Below, piece by piece: positions 19,357 to 49,145 of a stretch of 64,000 nt of DNA. This DNA is from Candidatus Entotheonellaceae bacterium (GTDB taxonomy: Bacteria > Tectomicrobia > Entotheonellia > Entotheonellales > Entotheonellaceae), in the NCBI GenBank assembly GCA_965238075.1, contig OZ250173.1, forward strand, positions 3,104,001 through 3,168,000, in the 5' to 3' direction. Position 1 is the stretch's first letter, and the number at the start of each line of letters is the position of its first letter. Position numbers and translations under genes: made by a program. The notes under the pieces were generated by a model, which worked only from the letters and a program-made list of their open reading frames with translations, did not search any database and was not told the origin of the DNA.

Positions 19357-19824
19357 ATGGCCATATGGATCAACAATCGCCAGCGGCGCGTGGCACTCAA
19401 TACGCCGTTTGTGAAGAAACAAGCCCTGCGGATGATGGCCTACCTTGGGTGCAGCGAAAACGAGCTCAGCGTGGTCTTCGTGCATGACGAGCGCATGCGG
19501 TCGTTGAATCGCGCTTACCGCTGCAAGGACCGTCCCACCAACGTGCTGGCTTTTCCACAATGCCCAAGCTATGAAGGCGAGCCCCAGACCCTTTTGCTAG
19601 GGGATGTCGTGATTTCGCTGCCGACTGCGGCGCGTGAGGCCTTCGAACTCGGCCAGACGCTTGAGGAACGCGTCGTGTTTCTTCTTGCCCATGGCCTGCT
19701 TCACCTATTGGGCTATGACCATGAGCGGTCCGCTGCCCAACGTCGCCGGATGGAATGTCGCGAACAAGATATTTTCTCGCACCTGAAGGGACAGCCGGCA
19801 TCAACAGAGCGCTGTCAGCCCTGA
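19357..19824 (+). CDS. ybeY: rRNA maturation endoribonuclease YbeY
   Basis: LNRAYRCKDRPTNVLAF, LGDVVIS, HGLLHLLGYDH. Confidence 0.96.
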   Translation: MAIWINNRQRRVALNTPFVKKQALRMMAYLGCSENELSVVFVHDERMRSLNRAYRCKDRPTNVLAFPQCPSYEGEPQTLLLGDVVISLPTAAREAFELGQTLEERVVFLLAHGLLHLLGYDHERSAAQRRRMECREQDIFSHLKGQPASTERCQP

Positions 19825-19847
19825 CCCTGATCAGGACACACCATGTC

Positions 19848-22535
19848 ATGAACACATCAGGTTCAAGCCATCCGCCTCATAGCACTGTTGCCAATCCTCA
19901 ACTCACGCCCATGATGGAGCAGTATGCGAATTTGAAGGCCAAGGCCGGCGACGCGCTGCTCTTTTTTCGCATGGGAGATTTTTACGAGTTGTTTCACGAT
20001 GATGCCATCATCGCCGCCAAAGCCCTCAACATCACGCTGACATCGCGCCAGAAACACCAGGATGATCCGATACCCATGTGCGGGGTTCCTTACCACAGTG
20101 CTGAAGGGTATGTGGAACGCTTGTTGCAGCAGGGATTGAAAGTCGCCATTGCCGAACAGATTGAAGACCCCAGACATGCCGAAGGCTTGGTGAAGCGGGA
20201 CATTATTCGCATCGTCACGCCGGGAACTATCGTCAGCGCGAACTCACTGGAGCCCAAGGTCCACAACTTCCTGGCCTGCATCGCAATTACAACCGACGGG
20301 GCCGGGTTCGCATTTGTCGATGTGTCCACCGGTACCTTCGCGGTCACAACATGGACGTCCGAAGGCCCTTGGCAGCAGGCGCTCAGAGGTGAATATGAGC
20401 GCCTGCAACCGCGGGAAGTCCTCATCCCGAAGCCCCTTGCGATACCTGTCGATATCGTCGAACGCCCTGCAGATCATTTCCCCAACACGCTCCAACCGTG
20501 GGATTCCCAGCATTTCCGCGTAGACCGAGCCTACCGCCGCTTAACGCAGCACTTCTCCGTGCGCTCACTGGAGAGTTTTGGATGTGAAGAACAACCACTC
20601 GCCATTGCGGCGGCCGGTGCCTTGTTGGCCTATGCGTATGAGACGCAGCAAAAAAACATGGTGCACGTACATGGGCTGAATTATTACAACACGGGCGATT
20701 ACATGGTGCTTGACAAGACCACGAGACAAAACTTGGACTTGTTGCCGTCGCCCGCCACACAGGGACGCAATGGGTCCCTCTTGGAAGTCATTGATACCAC
20801 GGTTACGGCCATGGGGGGACGCCTCCTACGCGAGTGGCTGTCGCAGCCCCTGTGTCGGTTGGAGCCCCTCCAAGAGCGACAGGATGCGGTTGCGAACATC
20901 GTCGAGCAATCCGATAGGAGGGCGCGCCTGCGTGACGCTCTGGGAGCCATCGCCGATCTTGAGCGGCTTATGGGTCGGCTGTCGCTCGGCACGGTTAACC
21001 CACGCGAACTCGTGGCCTTGCGCCGCTCTATTGAGGGACTTCCGGGTATTGAAAAGGCGTTGCAGGGTGCCGATAGCGCGCTTCTGACCGGTTTCGGGTC
21101 ACAATGGGACTCTCTGGCCGATCTGGCCGTTCTGATCAAGGAGGCGCTTGTTGATGATCCCCCGGCGACTTTGCGGGACGGGTGGGTCATACGTTCGGAT
21201 TCCTGTCAGGAATTGAAAACGCTTCGGGAGGAGAGCACGTCGGGCAAGAATTGGCTGAGTGAATTGGAAGCACAAGAGCGCGAACGAACGGGCATTTCTT
21301 CACTGCGGGTCGGATTCAACAAGGTGTTCGGGTATTACATCGAGGTGCGCAAGACGTATCTGAACCAGGTGCCGGACAATTACGTGCGCAAACAAACCCT
21401 GGTGAACGCCGAACGTTTCATCGTACCGGTGCTGAAAGACCGTGAAGTACAGATGTTGCGGGCGGCGGAAGAGGCCATCAGTCTGGAGCACCAACTCTAC
21501 GATGCTCTGGTGAAACAACTGGTAGACAACGCCGGACGCTTGCAGCAGATGGCGCGGATTGTGGGCCAGATCGATGTCATTGCTGCACTGGCCCACACGG
21601 CAACGATTCGACGGTATTGTCGCCCGACGCTTGATATGGGTGATGAATTGGCGATTGCGGACGGCCGTCACCCGGTTCTGGAGGTCGTATACCAGGAAGA
21701 GCGTTTCGTGCCGAATGACACCCTGCTAGACCGGGAGGATCAACAGATTCTGCTGCTGACGGGTCCGAACATGGCAGGGAAATCGACGTACATGCGTCAA
21801 GTGGCGCTCAATGTCGTGCTGGGCCAAATCGGCAGTTACGTGCCGGCGCGCAGGGCTCACATCGGCCTGGTTGACCGGATATTTACCCGTGTGGGGGCGC
21901 AGGACGTATTGTCAAAAGGGCAGAGCACCTTCATGGTGGAAATGACCGAAACTGCCAATATCCTGCACAATCTCACGGCTCGGAGTCTCATCTTGCTGGA
22001 TGAAATTGGCAGGGGTACCAGCACCTATGATGGTATGAGCATCGCGTGGGCCGTCATTGAATACATCCACAACCATCGGGGCCTGCGTCCGCGAGCGCTT
22101 TTCGCCACGCATTATCATGAATTGACGAATCTGGCTGAGTGGCTTTCACGGTTGCATAATTTCAACGCTTTGGTTCAGGAGGAGGGGGAACAGATCGTTT
22201 TTCTGCGACACATCGTACCGGGAAGCGCTGATCGCAGCTATGGCATTCAGGTTGCGCGGTTGGCGGGACTTCCGACTTCCGTTGTGTGCCGGGCGAACCA
22301 ATTATTGACACGCCTCGAATCGAGATCAGCCTCTAGCGAATCCGCAGGGGACCACGCCCGCCCTCAGTCCGCCGCTATTCCCGCCCAACAGCCCTATCGA
22401 CAACCTACGCTCTTTGATGATCTTTCGACGCAGTTGTTGGATGAACTGCGAACGACCGCCATAGATGAATTGTCACCGCTGGAAGCTTTGAACAAGTTGG
22501 CGGAGTATCAAGGCAGGGCTCGCCGCCTCCCATAG
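19848..22535 (+). CDS. mutS: DNA mismatch repair protein MutS
   Basis: TPMMEQY, FFRMGDFYELF, TGPNMAGKSTYMRQ, DEIGRGTST, FATHYHEL, SYGIQVARLAG. Confidence 0.98.
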   Translation: MNTSGSSHPPHSTVANPQLTPMMEQYANLKAKAGDALLFFRMGDFYELFHDDAIIAAKALNITLTSRQKHQDDPIPMCGVPYHSAEGYVERLLQQGLKVAIAEQIEDPRHAEGLVKRDIIRIVTPGTIVSANSLEPKVHNFLACIAITTDGAGFAFVDVSTGTFAVTTWTSEGPWQQALRGEYERLQPREVLIPKPLAIPVDIVERPADHFPNTLQPWDSQHFRVDRAYRRLTQHFSVRSLESFGCEEQPLAIAAAGALLAYAYETQQKNMVHVHGLNYYNTGDYMVLDKTTRQNLDLLPSPATQGRNGSLLEVIDTTVTAMGGRLLREWLSQPLCRLEPLQERQDAVANIVEQSDRRARLRDALGAIADLERLMGRLSLGTVNPRELVALRRSIEGLPGIEKALQGADSALLTGFGSQWDSLADLAVLIKEALVDDPPATLRDGWVIRSDSCQELKTLREESTSGKNWLSELEAQERERTGISSLRVGFNKVFGYYIEVRKTYLNQVPDNYVRKQTLVNAERFIVPVLKDREVQMLRAAEEAISLEHQLYDALVKQLVDNAGRLQQMARIVGQIDVIAALAHTATIRRYCRPTLDMGDELAIADGRHPVLEVVYQEERFVPNDTLLDREDQQILLLTGPNMAGKSTYMRQVALNVVLGQIGSYVPARRAHIGLVDRIFTRVGAQDVLSKGQSTFMVEMTETANILHNLTARSLILLDEIGRGTSTYDGMSIAWAVIEYIHNHRGLRPRALFATHYHELTNLAEWLSRLHNFNALVQEEGEQIVFLRHIVPGSADRSYGIQVARLAGLPTSVVCRANQLLTRLESRSASSESAGDHARPQSAAIPAQQPYRQPTLFDDLSTQLLDELRTTAIDELSPLEALNKLAEYQGRARRLP

Positions 22536-22648
22536 GCGAGGATGCATAAGGACTTATTGGCTTGCCTTTTCCTCGGTGTCCGTTTAGTGTGTGCGCGCAA
22601 TGTTTCATAACGGCATCGAATTCCTGCCTTTACATCTCCCTGTAATCT

Positions 22649-23035
22649 ATGTCTCTTAGACGACAGAACCAAGGATCAAACGAGGCTTTGTTTTGGTCAC
22701 TGCTTGCGAGGGCGCGGGTTATGCGCTTGGTCAGGTGTGGGCTATTGGTTTTGGTTCTCGGGGTAGGAGTAGAACTCTATGTGCCTCTTGGTGGTGAAGC
22801 TTCTACCTTCCGCTGGCACGATTTTTCCATCACACTGCCTCTCACCGCATTGATTGCCCGGATCGGATTAGGACTCGTAGGTGGGATGGCTTTGGACGAG
22901 CGCCGCAGAGTTGTCGAATGGTGGGAAATGACCGAGGAGTTCCTGCATGGCATAAGGGACGTTTTGAATTCGCTTCAACTGTCGCCTCGTATTGAACTGC
23001 CTATAGGCTCAACGAGGGCAGGGGACCTTTCATGA
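22649..23035 (+). CDS. Small membrane protein ending in an NtrY-like His-box (DHp helix 1), without a kinase ATPase domain; alternative start ATG 22721; could be a pseudogene remnant
   Basis: Two hydrophobic segments, then EWWEMTEEFLHGIRDVLNSLQLS, which aligns with NtrY-type AWREVARRIAHEIKNPLTPIQLS; 10 nt upstream of the REC-LpxC gene. Confidence 0.5.
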   Translation: MSLRRQNQGSNEALFWSLLARARVMRLVRCGLLVLVLGVGVELYVPLGGEASTFRWHDFSITLPLTALIARIGLGLVGGMALDERRRVVEWWEMTEEFLHGIRDVLNSLQLSPRIELPIGSTRAGDLS

Positions 23036-23045
23036 GGCGAGTCGA

Positions 23046-24344
23046 ATGACGGAAAGCATACACATGGGAATACGTCGCGTCTTAATTGTTGATGACGACG
23101 CAAGCCTGTCGAGGGCATTAGCTGGCGCACTTAAGGAAGAGGGCTTTCAGGCAATTTGCAGCGTCGATGGACAGGAGGCTCTGAGGCTTGTCCACAGTTT
23201 CCGCCCGGACGTGATGCTCCTTGACATCTGGCTGCCCGGCATGAACGGTATCGAAATCCTGCAAGCTTTGCAGAGCACGGATGTCGCATGTCCAGTCATC
23301 ATGTTGTCAGGCTACGGCACGATTGCCATGGCCGTGAAGGCGATTCAACTTGGAGCTTTCGATTACATTGAAAAGCCTTGTTCGCTCGATAGGCTGGTGG
23401 ATAGCATTAGACAAGCCTGTCCTCCGCGCGATGTCGCAGTCATTTCCCAGTCGTCTTCCGCAACCTCTTCGCTATCGATGGGTCATACCCGTTCAGGCTC
23501 ACCATTTGCGGTTCACCATCCCCAGCGCACGCTGCGCTGCAGTGTGGTTGGATACGGACTGGGACTGCAATCCGGTGTTAAGACGGGCATTATTCTTGAG
23601 CCGATGCCGACCGACAGCGGCATTGTCTTCAGGAACGTTGCAACAGGTGAAACGTTACCGGCCGCTATTGATTTCGTTACGTCCACCAACTTTTGTACGA
23701 CGTTGCATCGAAAAGGTGTCACGGTCAGAACAATCGAGCATCTCATGTCGGCCTTGCACGCTTATGGCATTACCAATTTACTGGTCCAAGTTGGCGACGA
23801 AGTGCCCATTATGGACGGCTCAGCCACCTCCTTCTGTCAGCTTATCGAAGAGGGCGGCGTCGTCGAGCAGGGGGGTGAACTGGAAGAATTCGTTGTGGAC
23901 CGCTGTTATCACGTGGGCCAAATCGACCCGGCGTCCAAATTCATTCTGGTCGAGCCTTACGATGGATTTAAGGTCTCCTACCGCTTGCATTACCCTCAGC
24001 CGTTAGGCATTCAAGAGTTCACGTATGAGCACCGGAATGGGGCGAGTTATCGCTTTGAGATTGCCCCAGCGCGCACCTTTGCGTTTGTGCGTGAGGTGGA
24101 AAAGATGCACGACATGGGACTAATCGCCGGCGGGCGCCTGAATAATGTCATTTTACTGGGCGATGAAAAAATCGTAAATAACGTACAGTTGCGGTTTCCT
24201 GATGAATGTGTTCGGCATAAGGTACTCGACCTCATTGGAGATTTGTACCTGCTTGGCAAAAGTTTGCGCGGGCACGTGCGGGCGAATATGACCGGGCACA
24301 CCGAAAATGTGGCTCTGGTGAAACAGCTTTCCGACGCCCTGTGA
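23046..24344 (+). CDS. lpxC: Fusion of a response-regulator receiver domain and UDP-3-O-acyl-GlcNAc deacetylase LpxC
   Basis: N-terminal REC: LIVDDD, LLDIWLP, MLSG, YIEKP. C-terminal LpxC: QRTL, TIEHLMSAL, EVPIMDGSA, IAPARTF, RHKVLDLIGDL, TGH. Single uninterrupted ORF. Confidence 0.93.
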   Translation: MTESIHMGIRRVLIVDDDASLSRALAGALKEEGFQAICSVDGQEALRLVHSFRPDVMLLDIWLPGMNGIEILQALQSTDVACPVIMLSGYGTIAMAVKAIQLGAFDYIEKPCSLDRLVDSIRQACPPRDVAVISQSSSATSSLSMGHTRSGSPFAVHHPQRTLRCSVVGYGLGLQSGVKTGIILEPMPTDSGIVFRNVATGETLPAAIDFVTSTNFCTTLHRKGVTVRTIEHLMSALHAYGITNLLVQVGDEVPIMDGSATSFCQLIEEGGVVEQGGELEEFVVDRCYHVGQIDPASKFILVEPYDGFKVSYRLHYPQPLGIQEFTYEHRNGASYRFEIAPARTFAFVREVEKMHDMGLIAGGRLNNVILLGDEKIVNNVQLRFPDECVRHKVLDLIGDLYLLGKSLRGHVRANMTGHTENVALVKQLSDAL

Positions 24345-24353
24345 GTTGTTGCG

Positions 24354-25094
24354 GTGACCGCTGGAGGAGAGTGCCATTTGAAGGTAAGGTGCAGCGATTG
24401 GCGACGTAAACAGATCAGGCAGCTGCGTCTACCGATCAGTTGTCTATTGGCCGTGTTCATCGGCATGGTGGGGTTCATCGGAGACAGCAGGGGCCTGGAA
24501 CTTGGTACGTTGATTGACAGAATCCAGGTCGCTTATGACCGCATGCAAGCCTTGACCGCTGACTTTCAGCAAGTTGCAACCCTCACATCGATCAACCGGC
24601 AACAGTTTTCGTCAGGCCGTCTGTATATTGAGAAACCTCACTGGATTCGTTGGGAATATGACAACCCGGAAAAACAGACCATCCTTTATAACGGTTCGGC
24701 CTTGCGCATTTACACGCCCAAGCGGCGGCAACTCTTGCAAAGTGTCATCGATGAGAGCACCCGTTCCAGTGTCGCCCTTCTATTTCTTGCCGGAGTCGTT
24801 AAGCTCCGCGATGTTTTCGCCATAACGGCCCTGCCCGAAACCGAGACAGGGCAGATGCTGATCCGCTTATTGCCACGTTCGCGTTTGGCTGGTTTCACTG
24901 AGTTGCGTGCGGCGATTAACCCGCGGAGTTACTTTATAGAAGGTCTGTGGATACATGACCCGATTGGGAACTTTACGGAAATCCGTCTTTCAACGCTCAC
25001 CGTTCACGCAACTTTACCTGCACATACCTTTGAGCTTGATTTGCCTCCAGATACAGAAATACTCAGCCCCAGCGACTTCGCAACCCCCCAGTAA
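24354..25094 (+). CDS. lolA: Outer-membrane lipoprotein carrier LolA family (start uncertain)
   Basis: Signal-like segment, ADFQQ, SGRLYIEKPHWIRWEY..PEKQ, D..GN.TEI. Confidence 0.85.
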   Translation: MTAGGECHLKVRCSDWRRKQIRQLRLPISCLLAVFIGMVGFIGDSRGLELGTLIDRIQVAYDRMQALTADFQQVATLTSINRQQFSSGRLYIEKPHWIRWEYDNPEKQTILYNGSALRIYTPKRRQLLQSVIDESTRSSVALLFLAGVVKLRDVFAITALPETETGQMLIRLLPRSRLAGFTELRAAINPRSYFIEGLWIHDPIGNFTEIRLSTLTVHATLPAHTFELDLPPDTEILSPSDFATPQ

Positions 25095-25213
25095 TGGATG
25101 AGCGTCCAGCTTCGGCGGATTTGTCGAGATAAGTCCATCCGAACGGACAGACCTTGGCATGGCAGGACGCGGCGCGAAAATTGACCGCGGGGTTTTTGTA
25201 AAGGGACAACACG

Positions 25214-26284
25214 ATGGAACCGACAGTGGCAGTTTTTATCTTTACGGCATTGCGATTCCTTGCGGTGCTTGGAGCCCTCATCGCCGTGCATGAGTTCGGT
25301 CATTTCATCGTGGCCAAGAAATCCGGCGTGCTTGTCGAACGATTTTCTATTGGATTTGGGCCGCCAATCTGGCGCAAGAAATCGGGTGACACGGAATACC
25401 GCCTTTCGGTAATCCCGTTGGGTGGCTACGTCAAGATGTACGGAGAGGATTTGGATGCCGAAATCAAGGAGAGCGAACGAGAGGGGTCGTTTCAACATCA
25501 ATCGGTGTGGAAACGGATTCCGATTGTAGCGGCAGGTCCGGCATTCAACATTTTCTTTGCGATTGCTCTCATCGCCTTTGTCCAGGTGGTTGGCTATCCG
25601 GTGGAGCAGTCGGTCCATATCGGCCGCATTCTCGAGGGTTCGGCGGCGGCCGAGGCTGGATTGCAAGCGGACGACGAGGTAATCAGGCTGAATGGCCAAG
25701 TCATCAGGCGAATTGAAGATCTCAAGCAACAAATCGTGGCAAGCAGGGGTAGCACGCTTTCCATGCAAATTACTCGAAACGGGCAGGAGCAAAGTCTTCT
25801 CATAACCCCACGCCAGGTTCAGGATGCTGAGGAATGGCGTATTGGCGTGGAACTGCGTCCGGGTAATTTCGTCTTGCAGCGCACCGATCCGTTTTCGGCG
25901 CTCGTTCGCGGTTGCGTTTGGACTTGGCGGATAACGCAGTTGACGTTCACAGGCTTCGGACAGATCATCTCCGGTGCCATCCCGGTTTCGGAAAGTCTTG
26001 CAGGTCCGCTCGGTATTGCGCAGGAAATTAGCCGACAGGCTGACAATGGTTGGCGCAATGTGGTCTTTCTGACCGCTGCCATCAGCGTAAGTTTGGCTAT
26101 TTTGAACCTTCTTCCCATTCCTGTCCTTGATGGTGGCCACTTGCTCTTTTTCGTGATCGAAATCGTTCAAGGAGGGCCTCTCAGCGTGCGCAAACGGGAG
26201 ATTGCTCACCAAGTAGGACTGGTGATATTGGTGTGCCTGATGCTCTTTGCTTTCTACAACGACCTCATGCGTTTGTTCTCCTGA
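25214..26284 (+). CDS. rseP: RIP metalloprotease RseP
   Basis: VHEFGH, FSIGFGP, IPLGGYVKM, AGPAFN, PDZ domain, NLLPIPVLDGGH. Confidence 0.97.
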   Translation: MEPTVAVFIFTALRFLAVLGALIAVHEFGHFIVAKKSGVLVERFSIGFGPPIWRKKSGDTEYRLSVIPLGGYVKMYGEDLDAEIKESEREGSFQHQSVWKRIPIVAAGPAFNIFFAIALIAFVQVVGYPVEQSVHIGRILEGSAAAEAGLQADDEVIRLNGQVIRRIEDLKQQIVASRGSTLSMQITRNGQEQSLLITPRQVQDAEEWRIGVELRPGNFVLQRTDPFSALVRGCVWTWRITQLTFTGFGQIISGAIPVSESLAGPLGIAQEISRQADNGWRNVVFLTAAISVSLAILNLLPIPVLDGGHLLFFVIEIVQGGPLSVRKREIAHQVGLVILVCLMLFAFYNDLMRLFS

Positions 26285-26345
26285 TGATGTTGTTGTCGGG
26301 TGCATGCGAATACGCAGTCATTTTTCGACGGAGCGGACTTTTCTC

Positions 26346-47279: not shown

Positions 47280-49145
47280 TCACGAAACCGTATTGGAGTC
47301 ATTGGGCAACATGGAAGGAACGACGCCGTTGCCGTTGTTTGACTTGCTGCACTCCGCGACAAGTGCGGCGATCTCGTCGGCATTCAGTTCTTCGCGCTCA
47401 ACGAGGGCTTGGGCAAGGGCGTGCAGGATGTGGATGTTGGCAGAAAGAATGGATTTCGCGCCTTCATAGCCATTGTTCACAAGCCGTTTAACTTCTTCAT
47501 CGATGGCAATGGCCGTGACCTCGCTGTAGTCCTTGTGCTGGGTAATCTCACGCCCGAGGAAAATCTGTTCCTCCTTCATTCCAAAGGCCAGAGGGCCCAT
47601 GCGGTCGCTCATGCCCCACTCGCAGACCATCTTGCGGGCAAGTTCGGTGGCCCGCTCAATGTCATTGCCGGCGCCCGTTGTCGGGTCTTTGAAGATGATT
47701 TCCTCCGCGGCCCTGCCTCCCATGTATATGTGAAGGTTGTTCACCAGGTATTCGCGTGGGTACGCGTGTTTTTCCTCCACAGGGAGTTGCTGCGTAATAC
47801 CTAGGGCCATGCCTCGGGGAATAATTGTGACCTTGTGAATGGGGTCGGTGCCGGGCAGGAGTTTCGCCACCAGCGCATGGCCGGCCTCATGATAGGCGGT
47901 GACCTTCTTTTCCTCATCGCTGATGACCATGCTGCGGCGTTCGGCGCCCATCATGACTTTGTCCTTGGCGCTTTCAAAATCTCGCATGTCAACCTGAGCT
48001 TTGTTATGCCGAGCAGCGAATAGCGCCGCTTCATTGGCAAGGTTGGACAGATCCGCCCCCGAGAACCCCGGCGTGCCGCGCGCCAAGATCGCCAAATCGA
48101 CGTCGCTGGCGAGGGGGATGTCCTTCGTGTGCACAGTCAGAATGCCGGCCCGACCGCGTACATCGGGTCGGGATACCACCACCTGTCGGTCAAACCGTCC
48201 GGGGCGCAAAAGAGCCGGGTCGAGGACATCCGGGCGGTTTGTCGCGGCGATCAGAATGACGCCTTCGTTTGACTCGAAGCCATCCATTTCCACCAAGAGT
48301 TGATTCAGGGTCTGTTCGCGTTCATCGTGTCCGCCGCCCAAGCCGGCGCCCCGATGACGCCCAACCGCGTCGATTTCGTCAATAAACACGATGCACGGTG
48401 CGTGTTTCTTGCCTTGTTCGAACAGGTCCCGCACACGAGACGCGCCCACGCCCACAAACATTTCGACAAAATCCGAGCCGCTGATGCTGAAGAACGGCAC
48501 ATTCGACTCACCCGCAATCGCCCGGGCCAACAACGTCTTACCCGTCCCTGGGGGGCCCATCAACAGAACACCTTTGGGAATTTTCCCGCCCAGTTTCTGG
48601 AAACGTTGCGGATCTTTCAGAAAATCAATGATCTCTTCCAATTCAGCTTTCGCTTCATCGGCCCCCGCGACGTCAGAAAAGGTGGCTTTTTTCTTCTGCT
48701 CGGAAAGCAAGCGGGCGCGGCTTTTTCCGAATGACAGGGCCTTGCTGCCCCCACTCTGCATTTGCCGCATGAAGAACACCCATAGACCGATCAATAACAT
48801 GACCGGTGCCCAGGACAGGAGAAACTGTACAAGGTAAGAGTTCTTTTCCGGGGGTTCGACTTCGATGCCGACTTGGCTGTCGCGGAGAAAGGGAATCAGG
48901 TCGGGGTCTTCCGGGGCATACGTTTTGAACTGGCCGTCAGCACCCTCGCCGCCGACGTACTCACCGGTGATTTCCTCTCCCTGGATGTGTACCGTACGGA
49001 CACGATTCTGCCGTACTTCCTCGATAAAATCGCTGTATGAGATTTCTTGTATGGGCTGACTCGCTGTATTGAAGTAACTCCAGGTGAAGACAAGGATGAG
49101 GCCAAAAACCAACCACAGAGCAAGTTTTTGATAGAATTGGCTCAA
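47280..49145 (-). CDS. ftsH: ATP-dependent zinc metalloprotease FtsH
   Basis: Two TMs, [38 protein letters not shown]. Confidence 0.99.

Follow-up and report, generated by a model that had tools for sequence, protein, structure and literature searches.

A single gene in a 64,000-nucleotide (nt) stretch of DNA from a sponge-associated Candidatus Entotheonellaceae bacterium (contig OZ250173.1, positions 3,104,001 to 3,168,000; hereafter the window, numbered from its first letter) encodes a two-component receiver (REC) domain joined through a serine-rich linker to a complete LpxC, the deacetylase that catalyses the committed step in making lipid A. The fusion is the only LpxC of its genome. Its origin from an ntrY-ntrX-lpxC locus is well supported by comparison with relatives; the kinase gene ntrY has been lost from the window lineage, and the receiver is held by purifying selection as firmly as the enzyme. 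The reading that we prefer, and to which we give an even chance, is a partnership in cis: REC packs on LpxC, its input has been lost in the window lineage, and the receiver is kept through dependence of the enzyme upon it. The parts of the gene are as follows.

23046..24344, + strand: REC-linker-LpxC coding sequence, 432 amino acids (aa), stop included (list of open reading frames (ORFs), translation, Pfam)
23079..23408, + strand: receiver (REC) domain of NtrX ancestry, aa 12–121 (PF00072)
23223..23225, + strand: GAC codon of D60, the predicted phospho-acceptor, read from the sequence
23421..23516, + strand: Ser-rich disordered linker, aa 126–157, where relatives carry AAA+ and HTH_8
23523..24332, + strand: LpxC deacetylase domain, aa 160–429 (PF03331)
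23568..23570, + strand: CAA codon of Q175, at the place of Pseudomonas aeruginosa LpxC His19 (sequence, alignment)

Translation may in fact begin at the ATG of position 23064 (M7), since proteins P0019, P0020 and P0022 start at the residue aligned with M7; a GAGG lies 9–12 nt 5′ of position 23046. The receiver matches Response_reg (PF00072) at aa 12–121 with E = 7.7e-30 and a score of 103.8 bits (cut-off 30.2); in the AlphaFold2 model it comprises five strand-helix units with a predicted local distance difference test score (pLDDT) >90, that is, a (βα)5 fold. The pocket contains D16, D17 and D18, D60 (in LLDIWLP), S88, Y107 and K110 (in EKP), and the canonical receiver set of acidic pair, phospho-Asp, Ser, aromatic switch residue and Lys is complete. 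The linker (32 residues, nine of them Ser) has pLDDT <50 for aa 128–154, and long relatives hold Sigma54_activat, AAA_lid_14 and HTH_8 at its position. The LpxC match (PF03331, aa 160–429) has E = 5.7e-83 and 278.9 bits against a cut-off of 27, and covers model positions 1–267 of 268. An earlier note on this DNA had described one frame with a receiver, a Ser-rich linker and a full LpxC, had named the DDD, the Asp of LLDIWLP, the switch Ser and the Lys of EKP, had read GLGLQ for the usual GxGLH in an LpxC retaining its Zn and catalytic residues, and had placed lolA and then rseP downstream. Pfam, the translation, the modelled disorder of the linker and alignment with P. aeruginosa LpxC show this description to be correct in every detail that could be checked.

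In that alignment E231–H232 pair with E77–H78 of P. aeruginosa LpxC, H391–K392, D395 and D399 with H237–K238, D241 and D245, and G417–H418 with the G–H264 pair. The Zn ligands are H232, H391 and D395, and the catalytic pair is E231 and H418 (roles of the P. aeruginosa residues as given in the available text of PMC11877204). These residues are invariant across 54 fusion proteins (alignment A1). The LpxC part of the model superposes on the solved structures of P. aeruginosa, A. aeolicus and E. coli LpxC with a template modelling (TM) score of 0.79–0.92, normalised to the target, and E = 1e-30 (Foldseek). The model has a low-confidence stretch at aa 350–380, by Insert II and the acyl passage. Being the single LpxC of its genome, alongside LpxA and LpxB encoded elsewhere, the LpxC of the fusion is very probably active as an enzyme. 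At 14 positions of the LpxC domain the fusion clade has residues that are conserved in ≥90% of its members and rare in stand-alone enzymes, among them M415–T416 and E420, around the catalytic H418.

The segment GLGLQ(175)SG pairs with GVGLH(19)SG of P. aeruginosa LpxC, and Q175 stands in place of a His that is common at the mouth of the active site and is non-catalytic. The available text of PMC11877204 has His19 hydrogen bonded to inhibitors. Gln occupies this place in 111 of the 121 proteins P0001–P0121 and in all eight Tectomicrobia loci L002–L009, and His occupies it at the remaining genome loci in which the motif was located. The change appears to mark the Tectomicrobia branch, a reading from which the motif of the sister family (f2, described below) is left out. 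The ‘H19’ of a deep mutational scanning paper (PMC9842644) was considered here and set aside, as it belongs to FabZ and not to LpxC; that paper contains no data on tolerance of H19Q.

The genome (one contig, 3.35 Mb, 93% complete) gives a single LpxC match, which is the fusion gene. A scan of 17 species-level genomes of the phylum found exactly one match in 16 and a second in none; 15 of the matches lie inside open frames of 392–758 aa, and a contig end truncates the other. The only genome lacking a match is 82% complete. The fusion is also the only LpxC in five fusion-carrying genomes of other phyla. A second, stand-alone lpxC, a possibility that the earlier note had raised, was found in neither the genome nor the phylum scan.

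Of 8,000 candidates scored in a database search, 7,959 matched at E ≤0.001. REC and LpxC occur together in 119 of the best 120 clusters, and 19 of these 120 (685–746 aa) also carry a sigma-54-type AAA+ domain. In a set of 80 genome loci, the 39 with an LpxC part closest to the query (domain E <1e-80, 43–96% identity) all have N-terminally extended frames: 15 are short forms (REC and LpxC), 21 are long (REC, AAA+ and LpxC), and three are contig-cut or frameshifted. Identity to the query is at most 44% among the 41 stand-alone LpxC genes. In a tree of 107 LpxC domains a branch of length 0.6, with a support of 100 in the Shimodaira–Hasegawa-like approximate likelihood ratio test, separates the fusion clade (66 rows) from the 41 stand-alone domains; on this tree the clade is monophyletic, its members coming from Tectomicrobia, Nitrospinota and Thermodesulfobacteriota. 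Every subclade contains long forms, and the short forms are nested among these. The short-form label needs six changes at the fewest, and the starred branches alone force at least three, so that the short REC-LpxC forms appear to have arisen several times by losing the middle part.

Two further loci deserve description. Four of the short forms are 514–516 aa long, and the one that was scanned (L027 5933–7474, Nitrospinota; also L028–L030) is a 514-aa protein of REC, HTH_8 and LpxC, encoded directly behind ntrY, in which AAA+ is gone and HTH_8 is retained. Locus L014 (whole locus, 3,163 bases) has a REC-AAA+-LpxC gene on a contig filed under a metagenome-assembled genome of Promethearchaeota (an Asgard archaeon). 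The gene is almost identical to that of L015 from Thermodesulfobacteriota (end branches 0.0068 and 0.0067), and L014 is probably a mis-binned bacterial contig.

The full form consists of REC, an AAA+ domain devoid of GAFTGA, HTH_8 and LpxC, in other words an NtrX joined to LpxC (AAA+ was seen in relatives L018, P0041 and L088, and HTH_8 in L088 and L027). GAFTGA is present in none of 33 long forms; most have Walker A, and the Asp-Glu of Walker B is kept by just two, P0042 and P0067. Among solved structures, the one that best fits the first 460 aa of the sister-family long form is Brucella NtrX (5m7n), which is matched from end to end (3e-56); NtrC-family regulators come next (1e-46). An NtrY-type kinase (NtrY_N, HAMP, PAS, HisKA, HATPase_c) is encoded directly upstream at 16 of the 39 fusion-clade loci, and at both sister-family loci, L088 and L089. 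With NtrX-like long forms and NtrY upstream of them, the ancestor is seen to have been an NtrX fused in frame to LpxC, behind ntrY. The NtrX-like character of the receiver and the derivation from an ntrY-ntrX-lpxC locus had both been put forward in the earlier note, and the second is now well supported by the sister family, which keeps a 746-aa ntrY directly before a 742-aa REC-AAA+-HTH_8-LpxC gene. The window protein has REC and LpxC as its only Pfam domains, without AAA+ or HTH_8, and is a descendant of NtrX and not a member of it.

The surroundings of the gene record the loss of the kinase.

19755..22535, + strand: mutS, conserved upstream neighbour (phmmer matches in L088–L093, E ≤1.5e-255)
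22536..23045, no strand: spacer between mutS and the fusion (510 nt), where the sister family has its epimerase, DUF4390 and ntrY genes
24354..25094, + strand: lolA, conserved downstream neighbour in the family (PF03548, 7.3e-26)
25214..26284, + strand: rseP, an M50 protease with PDZ (PF02163, 4.9e-67)

The locus of the sister family f2 reads mutS, epimerase, DUF4390, ntrY, fusion, one small gene and rseP. In the window and in four other genera of its family, f1, it reads mutS, REC-LpxC, lolA and rseP. LolA is encoded downstream in L003–L009 and L090–L093; rseP is common to short-form and long-form loci, with RseP matches in L088–L093. An ORF of 433 aa antisense to rseP (window 25004–26305, − strand) was rejected as a gene, being a mechanical ORF opposite an rseP that Pfam supports strongly. 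In the sister family the genes ahead of ntrY, at L088 3802–5685, encode an NAD-dependent epimerase and a DUF4390 protein; DUF4390 is a usual upstream neighbour of ntrYX in proteobacteria.

What lies directly upstream of the window gene is not ntrY, the place being taken by mutS and the 510-nt spacer. No relic of NtrY was found in the spacer (tblastn with the sister-family NtrY, best E 0.17), and the genome has no match to NtrY_N. There is no NtrY ortholog in this genome or in 12 of the 13 f1 genomes, where kinase matches are generic, partial and 24–38% identical; full-length orthologs are confined to families f2 and f3. The exception in f1 is G002 (L009 4195–8861 = G002:C79), in which ntrY and a long REC-AAA+-LpxC are present as pieces in shifted frames. 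These fragments may represent real decay of a kinase-fusion pair, or indel errors of long reads. An intact, near-identical twin of the G002 fusion is in the protein database (P0042).

The spacer itself contains an ORF of 128 aa (22649–23035), which might have been a gene or what is left of ntrY. It matches no Pfam family and does not resemble NtrY. In L002, the nearest genome, it is broken up into three frames; it is 47–68% identical in L006 and L003 and absent in L004, and it was rejected as a gene. No Rfam match was found in the spacer at E ≤1, and promoter-like and terminator-like sites are at the level of chance (2 versus 1.4 expected, and 1 versus 2.0). The ∼60 nt before the start (window 22985–23045) are nearly identical in L002, L003, L005 and L006, while the remaining spacer diverges, and L004 has a different sequence here. 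This block may be a conserved leader or a ribosome-binding region.

The genome encodes 13 receivers and about eight kinases, and each kinase has a receiver within a few kilobases. No kinase adjoins the fusion gene in the window and no orphan kinase was found in the genome; the fusion receiver is an orphan. The best NtrY-like kinase of the genome (HAMP-PAS-HisKA-HATPase; 1e-37, 29% identity) lies beside an OmpR-type regulator. The fusion receiver has no close paralog among the receivers of the genome, the best being 37% identical, and therefore similarity nominates no kinase for it. A gene for acetate kinase was not found in the genome.

Within the genus the ratio of non-synonymous to synonymous substitution (dN/dS) is 0.07–0.25 for REC, 0.08–0.20 for LpxC and 0.30–1.84 for the linker. 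Purifying selection acts on REC as strongly as on LpxC, and the linker evolves nearly neutrally. Among the best 120 close homologs S88 and K110 are kept in all, and Y107 in 119.

The phospho-pocket is relaxing among close relatives. The receiver is non-canonical at D16, D17 or D60 in 36 of the 118 full-length close homologs, and 10 of the 21 nearest clusters are non-canonical in the acidic pair (VDGD, VDED, ADSD, ADHD, VNDD). Glu is found at the phospho-site of L090 (G006), L092 (G003) and P0121, which belong to sister genera with large genomes (7–8 Mb), and in L090 and L092 the D60E receiver is part of the only LpxC of the genome. The nearest genome, L002, has K110R. In the GxGLH part of the clade, D60 is present in 30 of 30 rows and D17 in 29. 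The same Asp-to-Glu change reportedly makes NtrC constitutively active. Since receivers with a non-canonical pocket or Glu sit in the only LpxC of their genomes, phosphorylation cannot be required for activity in those relatives.

In sum, an NtrX-type regulator (REC, GAFTGA-less AAA+ and HTH_8) became fused in frame to lpxC downstream of ntrY-ntrX, and the window lineage then lost both the AAA+/HTH part, whose deletion left the disordered linker, and the kinase gene ntrY. This history, the anatomy, the sole-copy status, the kinase loss and the selection on REC are shown by the data; the enzyme activity, the contact in cis and the part that phosphorylation plays today are inferences. We propose that the receiver would act in cis as a conformational partner of LpxC, packing on the enzyme. 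In NtrY-linked relatives its phosphorylation probably sets the output of LpxC, in the manner of CheB. In the window organism the orphaned receiver, having no dedicated kinase, would be largely independent of phosphorylation, and would persist because LpxC has come to depend on it.

The AlphaFold model of the window protein has a predicted TM score (pTM) of 0.86, and that of L013, a Nitrospinota form shortened independently, one of 0.81, LpxC making up about 60–64% of the residues in the two. By our own arithmetic both values lie above what one confidently placed domain could yield, and the model is therefore confident on the position of REC relative to LpxC, which suggests that REC packs against LpxC. 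A complex prediction with separate chains (REC aa 1–128 and LpxC aa 158–432), run without controls, gave a score of 0.14 and a mark of 0.32, and is neutral on docking. The kinase-docking site of a receiver is its helix α1. When pairs are matched for divergence in the rest of REC (0.52–0.56), α1 identity is 0.29 among orphan forms (41 pairs) versus 0.53 among NtrY-adjacent forms (83 pairs), where the pairs are non-independent and the helix has 13 columns; by this comparison α1 has diversified in the orphan forms.

Several points weigh against a receiver that has become indifferent to phosphorylation, among them these limits of the α1 comparison. The contact between REC and LpxC is read from pTM and from no second source. 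The canonical pocket of the window copy is complete (D16, D17, D60, S88, Y107 and K110), and D60 is kept in 112 of the best 120 close homologs, which exceeds expectation if phosphorylation is irrelevant. In receivers substituted at D17, D18 might take over the binding of metal. A non-cognate kinase may serve the receiver, as may a donor other than the acetyl phosphate made by AckA.

The main alternative is a working phospho-switch, the proposal of the earlier note, which we consider possible though somewhat doubtful for the window organism. One of the remaining histidine kinases, rewired or branching, would phosphorylate D60 and so let an envelope or redox signal tune the synthesis of lipid A; S88, Y107 and K110 would change the contact with LpxC, or dimerisation would occur through the α4-β5-α5 face. 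The full pocket and the purifying selection on REC are as expected of such a switch, as is the conservation of the switch residues and D60 in the best 120 homologs. The NtrY genes directly upstream at the 16 fusion-clade and both sister-family loci indicate that the family began under kinase control. Diversification of α1 is also expected from rewiring to a new kinase, and the genome does retain the HAMP-PAS-HisKA-HATPase kinase. Against this, that kinase adjoins an OmpR-type regulator of its own, no kinase of the genome is an orphan, and no receiver of the genome exceeds 37% identity to that of the fusion. Ten of the 21 nearest clusters carry G, S, H, E or N in the acidic pair, and sister genera with the fusion as only LpxC have Glu at the phospho-site. 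The anatomy and the origin on which the earlier proposal was built have been borne out. The switch in this organism is not secured, with NtrY gone, all kinases paired, acetate kinase not found and non-canonical or Glu residues in relatives; a working phospho-switch here is uncertain, and is likelier in the NtrY-linked relatives. If a kinase other than NtrY can switch the window copy, then a two-component system would have LpxC itself as its output and these sponge symbionts would tune outer-membrane synthesis post-translationally on receipt of a signal, which we view as a tentative prospect.

It is improbable, in our view, that the receiver controls the amount of LpxC, acting as a handle for a protease or adaptor (FtsH or Lon) in replacement of the enterobacterial route through a C-terminal degron and LapB. 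The window protein ends three residues past the LpxC domain, compared with ∼30 residues past the aligned part in E. coli LpxC, and the sole match to the LapB zinc ribbon (PF18073) in the genome is RadA/Sms. Turnover of LpxC is the usual point of control in proteobacteria, according to the available text of PMC12444477. The genome has two FtsH (Peptidase_M41) genes, one of them in the window. PF18073 is however unspecific, with matches in 11 of 14 control genomes including Gram-positives, and the absence of LapB is therefore weak evidence. The receivers that serve as degradation handles, RssB and CpdR, are adaptors and not substrates, and nothing direct speaks for this explanation. The FtsH gene of the window lies at 47364–47930 (− strand), about 23 kb downstream of the fusion.

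The fusion is also found outside this assembly. The same frame is present in five other genus-level genomes, and contigs from four of four public runs (four studies) span the stretch and cross the junction free of insertions and deletions, one of them a DNA contig over 23033–23868. Run X16, an RNA library, gave a 1,774-nt contig over 22653–24400; contigs cannot show a transcript, and therefore only presence, not expression, is claimed from RNA runs. Run X7 is filed as RNA and its contig is 47 kb long, so it is probably DNA. Two of the covering runs are labelled sponge metagenome, and the nearest genomes (89–96% identity) are filed as uncultured Candidatus Entotheonella. The junction and the occurrence of the fusion in relatives, on which the earlier note had made its proposal depend, both hold, the latter extending from the genus to the wider clade. 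That the gene is an artefact, either a chimeric assembly or a pseudogene from read-through of two genes, is next to impossible, since nothing was found in favour of it and it is contradicted by the frame shared within the genus, the two domains in 119 of the best 120 clusters, the runs that cross the junction, the purifying selection on both domains and the lack of any other LpxC in the genome.

Response regulators with enzymatic outputs are a known class that includes CheB, PleD/WspR and RpfG. The fusion has the same arrangement of N-terminal REC, flexible linker and C-terminal enzyme, and by analogy with CheB it is plausible that REC packs on the enzyme and that phosphorylation changes the contact; unlike regulators of the CheB type, the window protein is without its kinase. 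The likeness to NtrY/NtrX of Brucella abortus (5m7n), Rhodobacter sphaeroides and Caulobacter crescentus lies in the long relatives, which share REC, GAFTGA-less AAA+ and HTH_8 and stand directly behind an NtrY-type kinase, with a DUF4390 gene ahead in the sister family. They differ in that the output of the fusion is an enzyme in the same polypeptide and not DNA binding, and further in that the window protein lacks AAA+ and HTH and its genome lacks ntrY. In proteobacteria LpxC is controlled through FtsH/LapB/YejM (E. coli), through activation by MurA (P. aeruginosa) and possibly through Lon (alphaproteobacteria). Unlike those enzymes, the window protein has no C-terminal tail, its genome has no LapB-like match but RadA, and a regulatory module is built into the enzyme.

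Signalling devoted to LpxC has a precedent in the DVU2931/DVU2934 two-component system of Desulfovibrio vulgaris, for which the available text of PMC3333781 gives lpxC as the only mapped target; the same text places lpxC of Syntrophobacter fumaroxidans next to an operon orthologous to that of the D. vulgaris regulator. Fusion locus L011 is from an uncultured Syntrophobacterales bacterium. The D. vulgaris system differs in being transcriptional and in acting via a separate DNA-binding regulator. NtrYX lowers lpxC transcription in two alphaproteobacteria, as reported in the portions available of PMC7240162 and PMC12444477. From these reports an NtrYX-like link to LpxC is already known at the level of transcription. 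The second of them, a 2025 review, names Lon, MurA, LapB homologs and transcriptional effects of NtrYX/ChvGI in the control of LpxC, and the terms ‘response regulator’, ‘fusion’ and ‘fused’ do not occur in it. We found no published description of a REC-LpxC fusion in a search that left subscription journals, supplementary files and domain-architecture databases outside its range, and the fusion is apparently undescribed in print.

As a response regulator with an enzymatic output, and as a post-translational handle on LpxC, the fusion belongs to kinds that are already known. What is new is its status as the sole LpxC across a phylum, the loss of ntrY in the f1 family, and a pocket and an α1 helix that are relaxing. 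The control of LpxC outside enterobacteria is largely open, and a receiver that forms part of the only LpxC in entire phyla would constitute a direct and testable route from a sensor kinase to outer-membrane synthesis. Natural variants (D17G/S/H, D60E and K110R) are available for its study. Within one phylum the series runs from ntrY with a full NtrX-LpxC, through a kinase-less REC-LpxC, to forms in which the pocket has degenerated or the phospho-site holds Glu. It would illustrate the survival of a signalling domain beyond the loss of its input, where an essential enzyme can no longer do without that domain.

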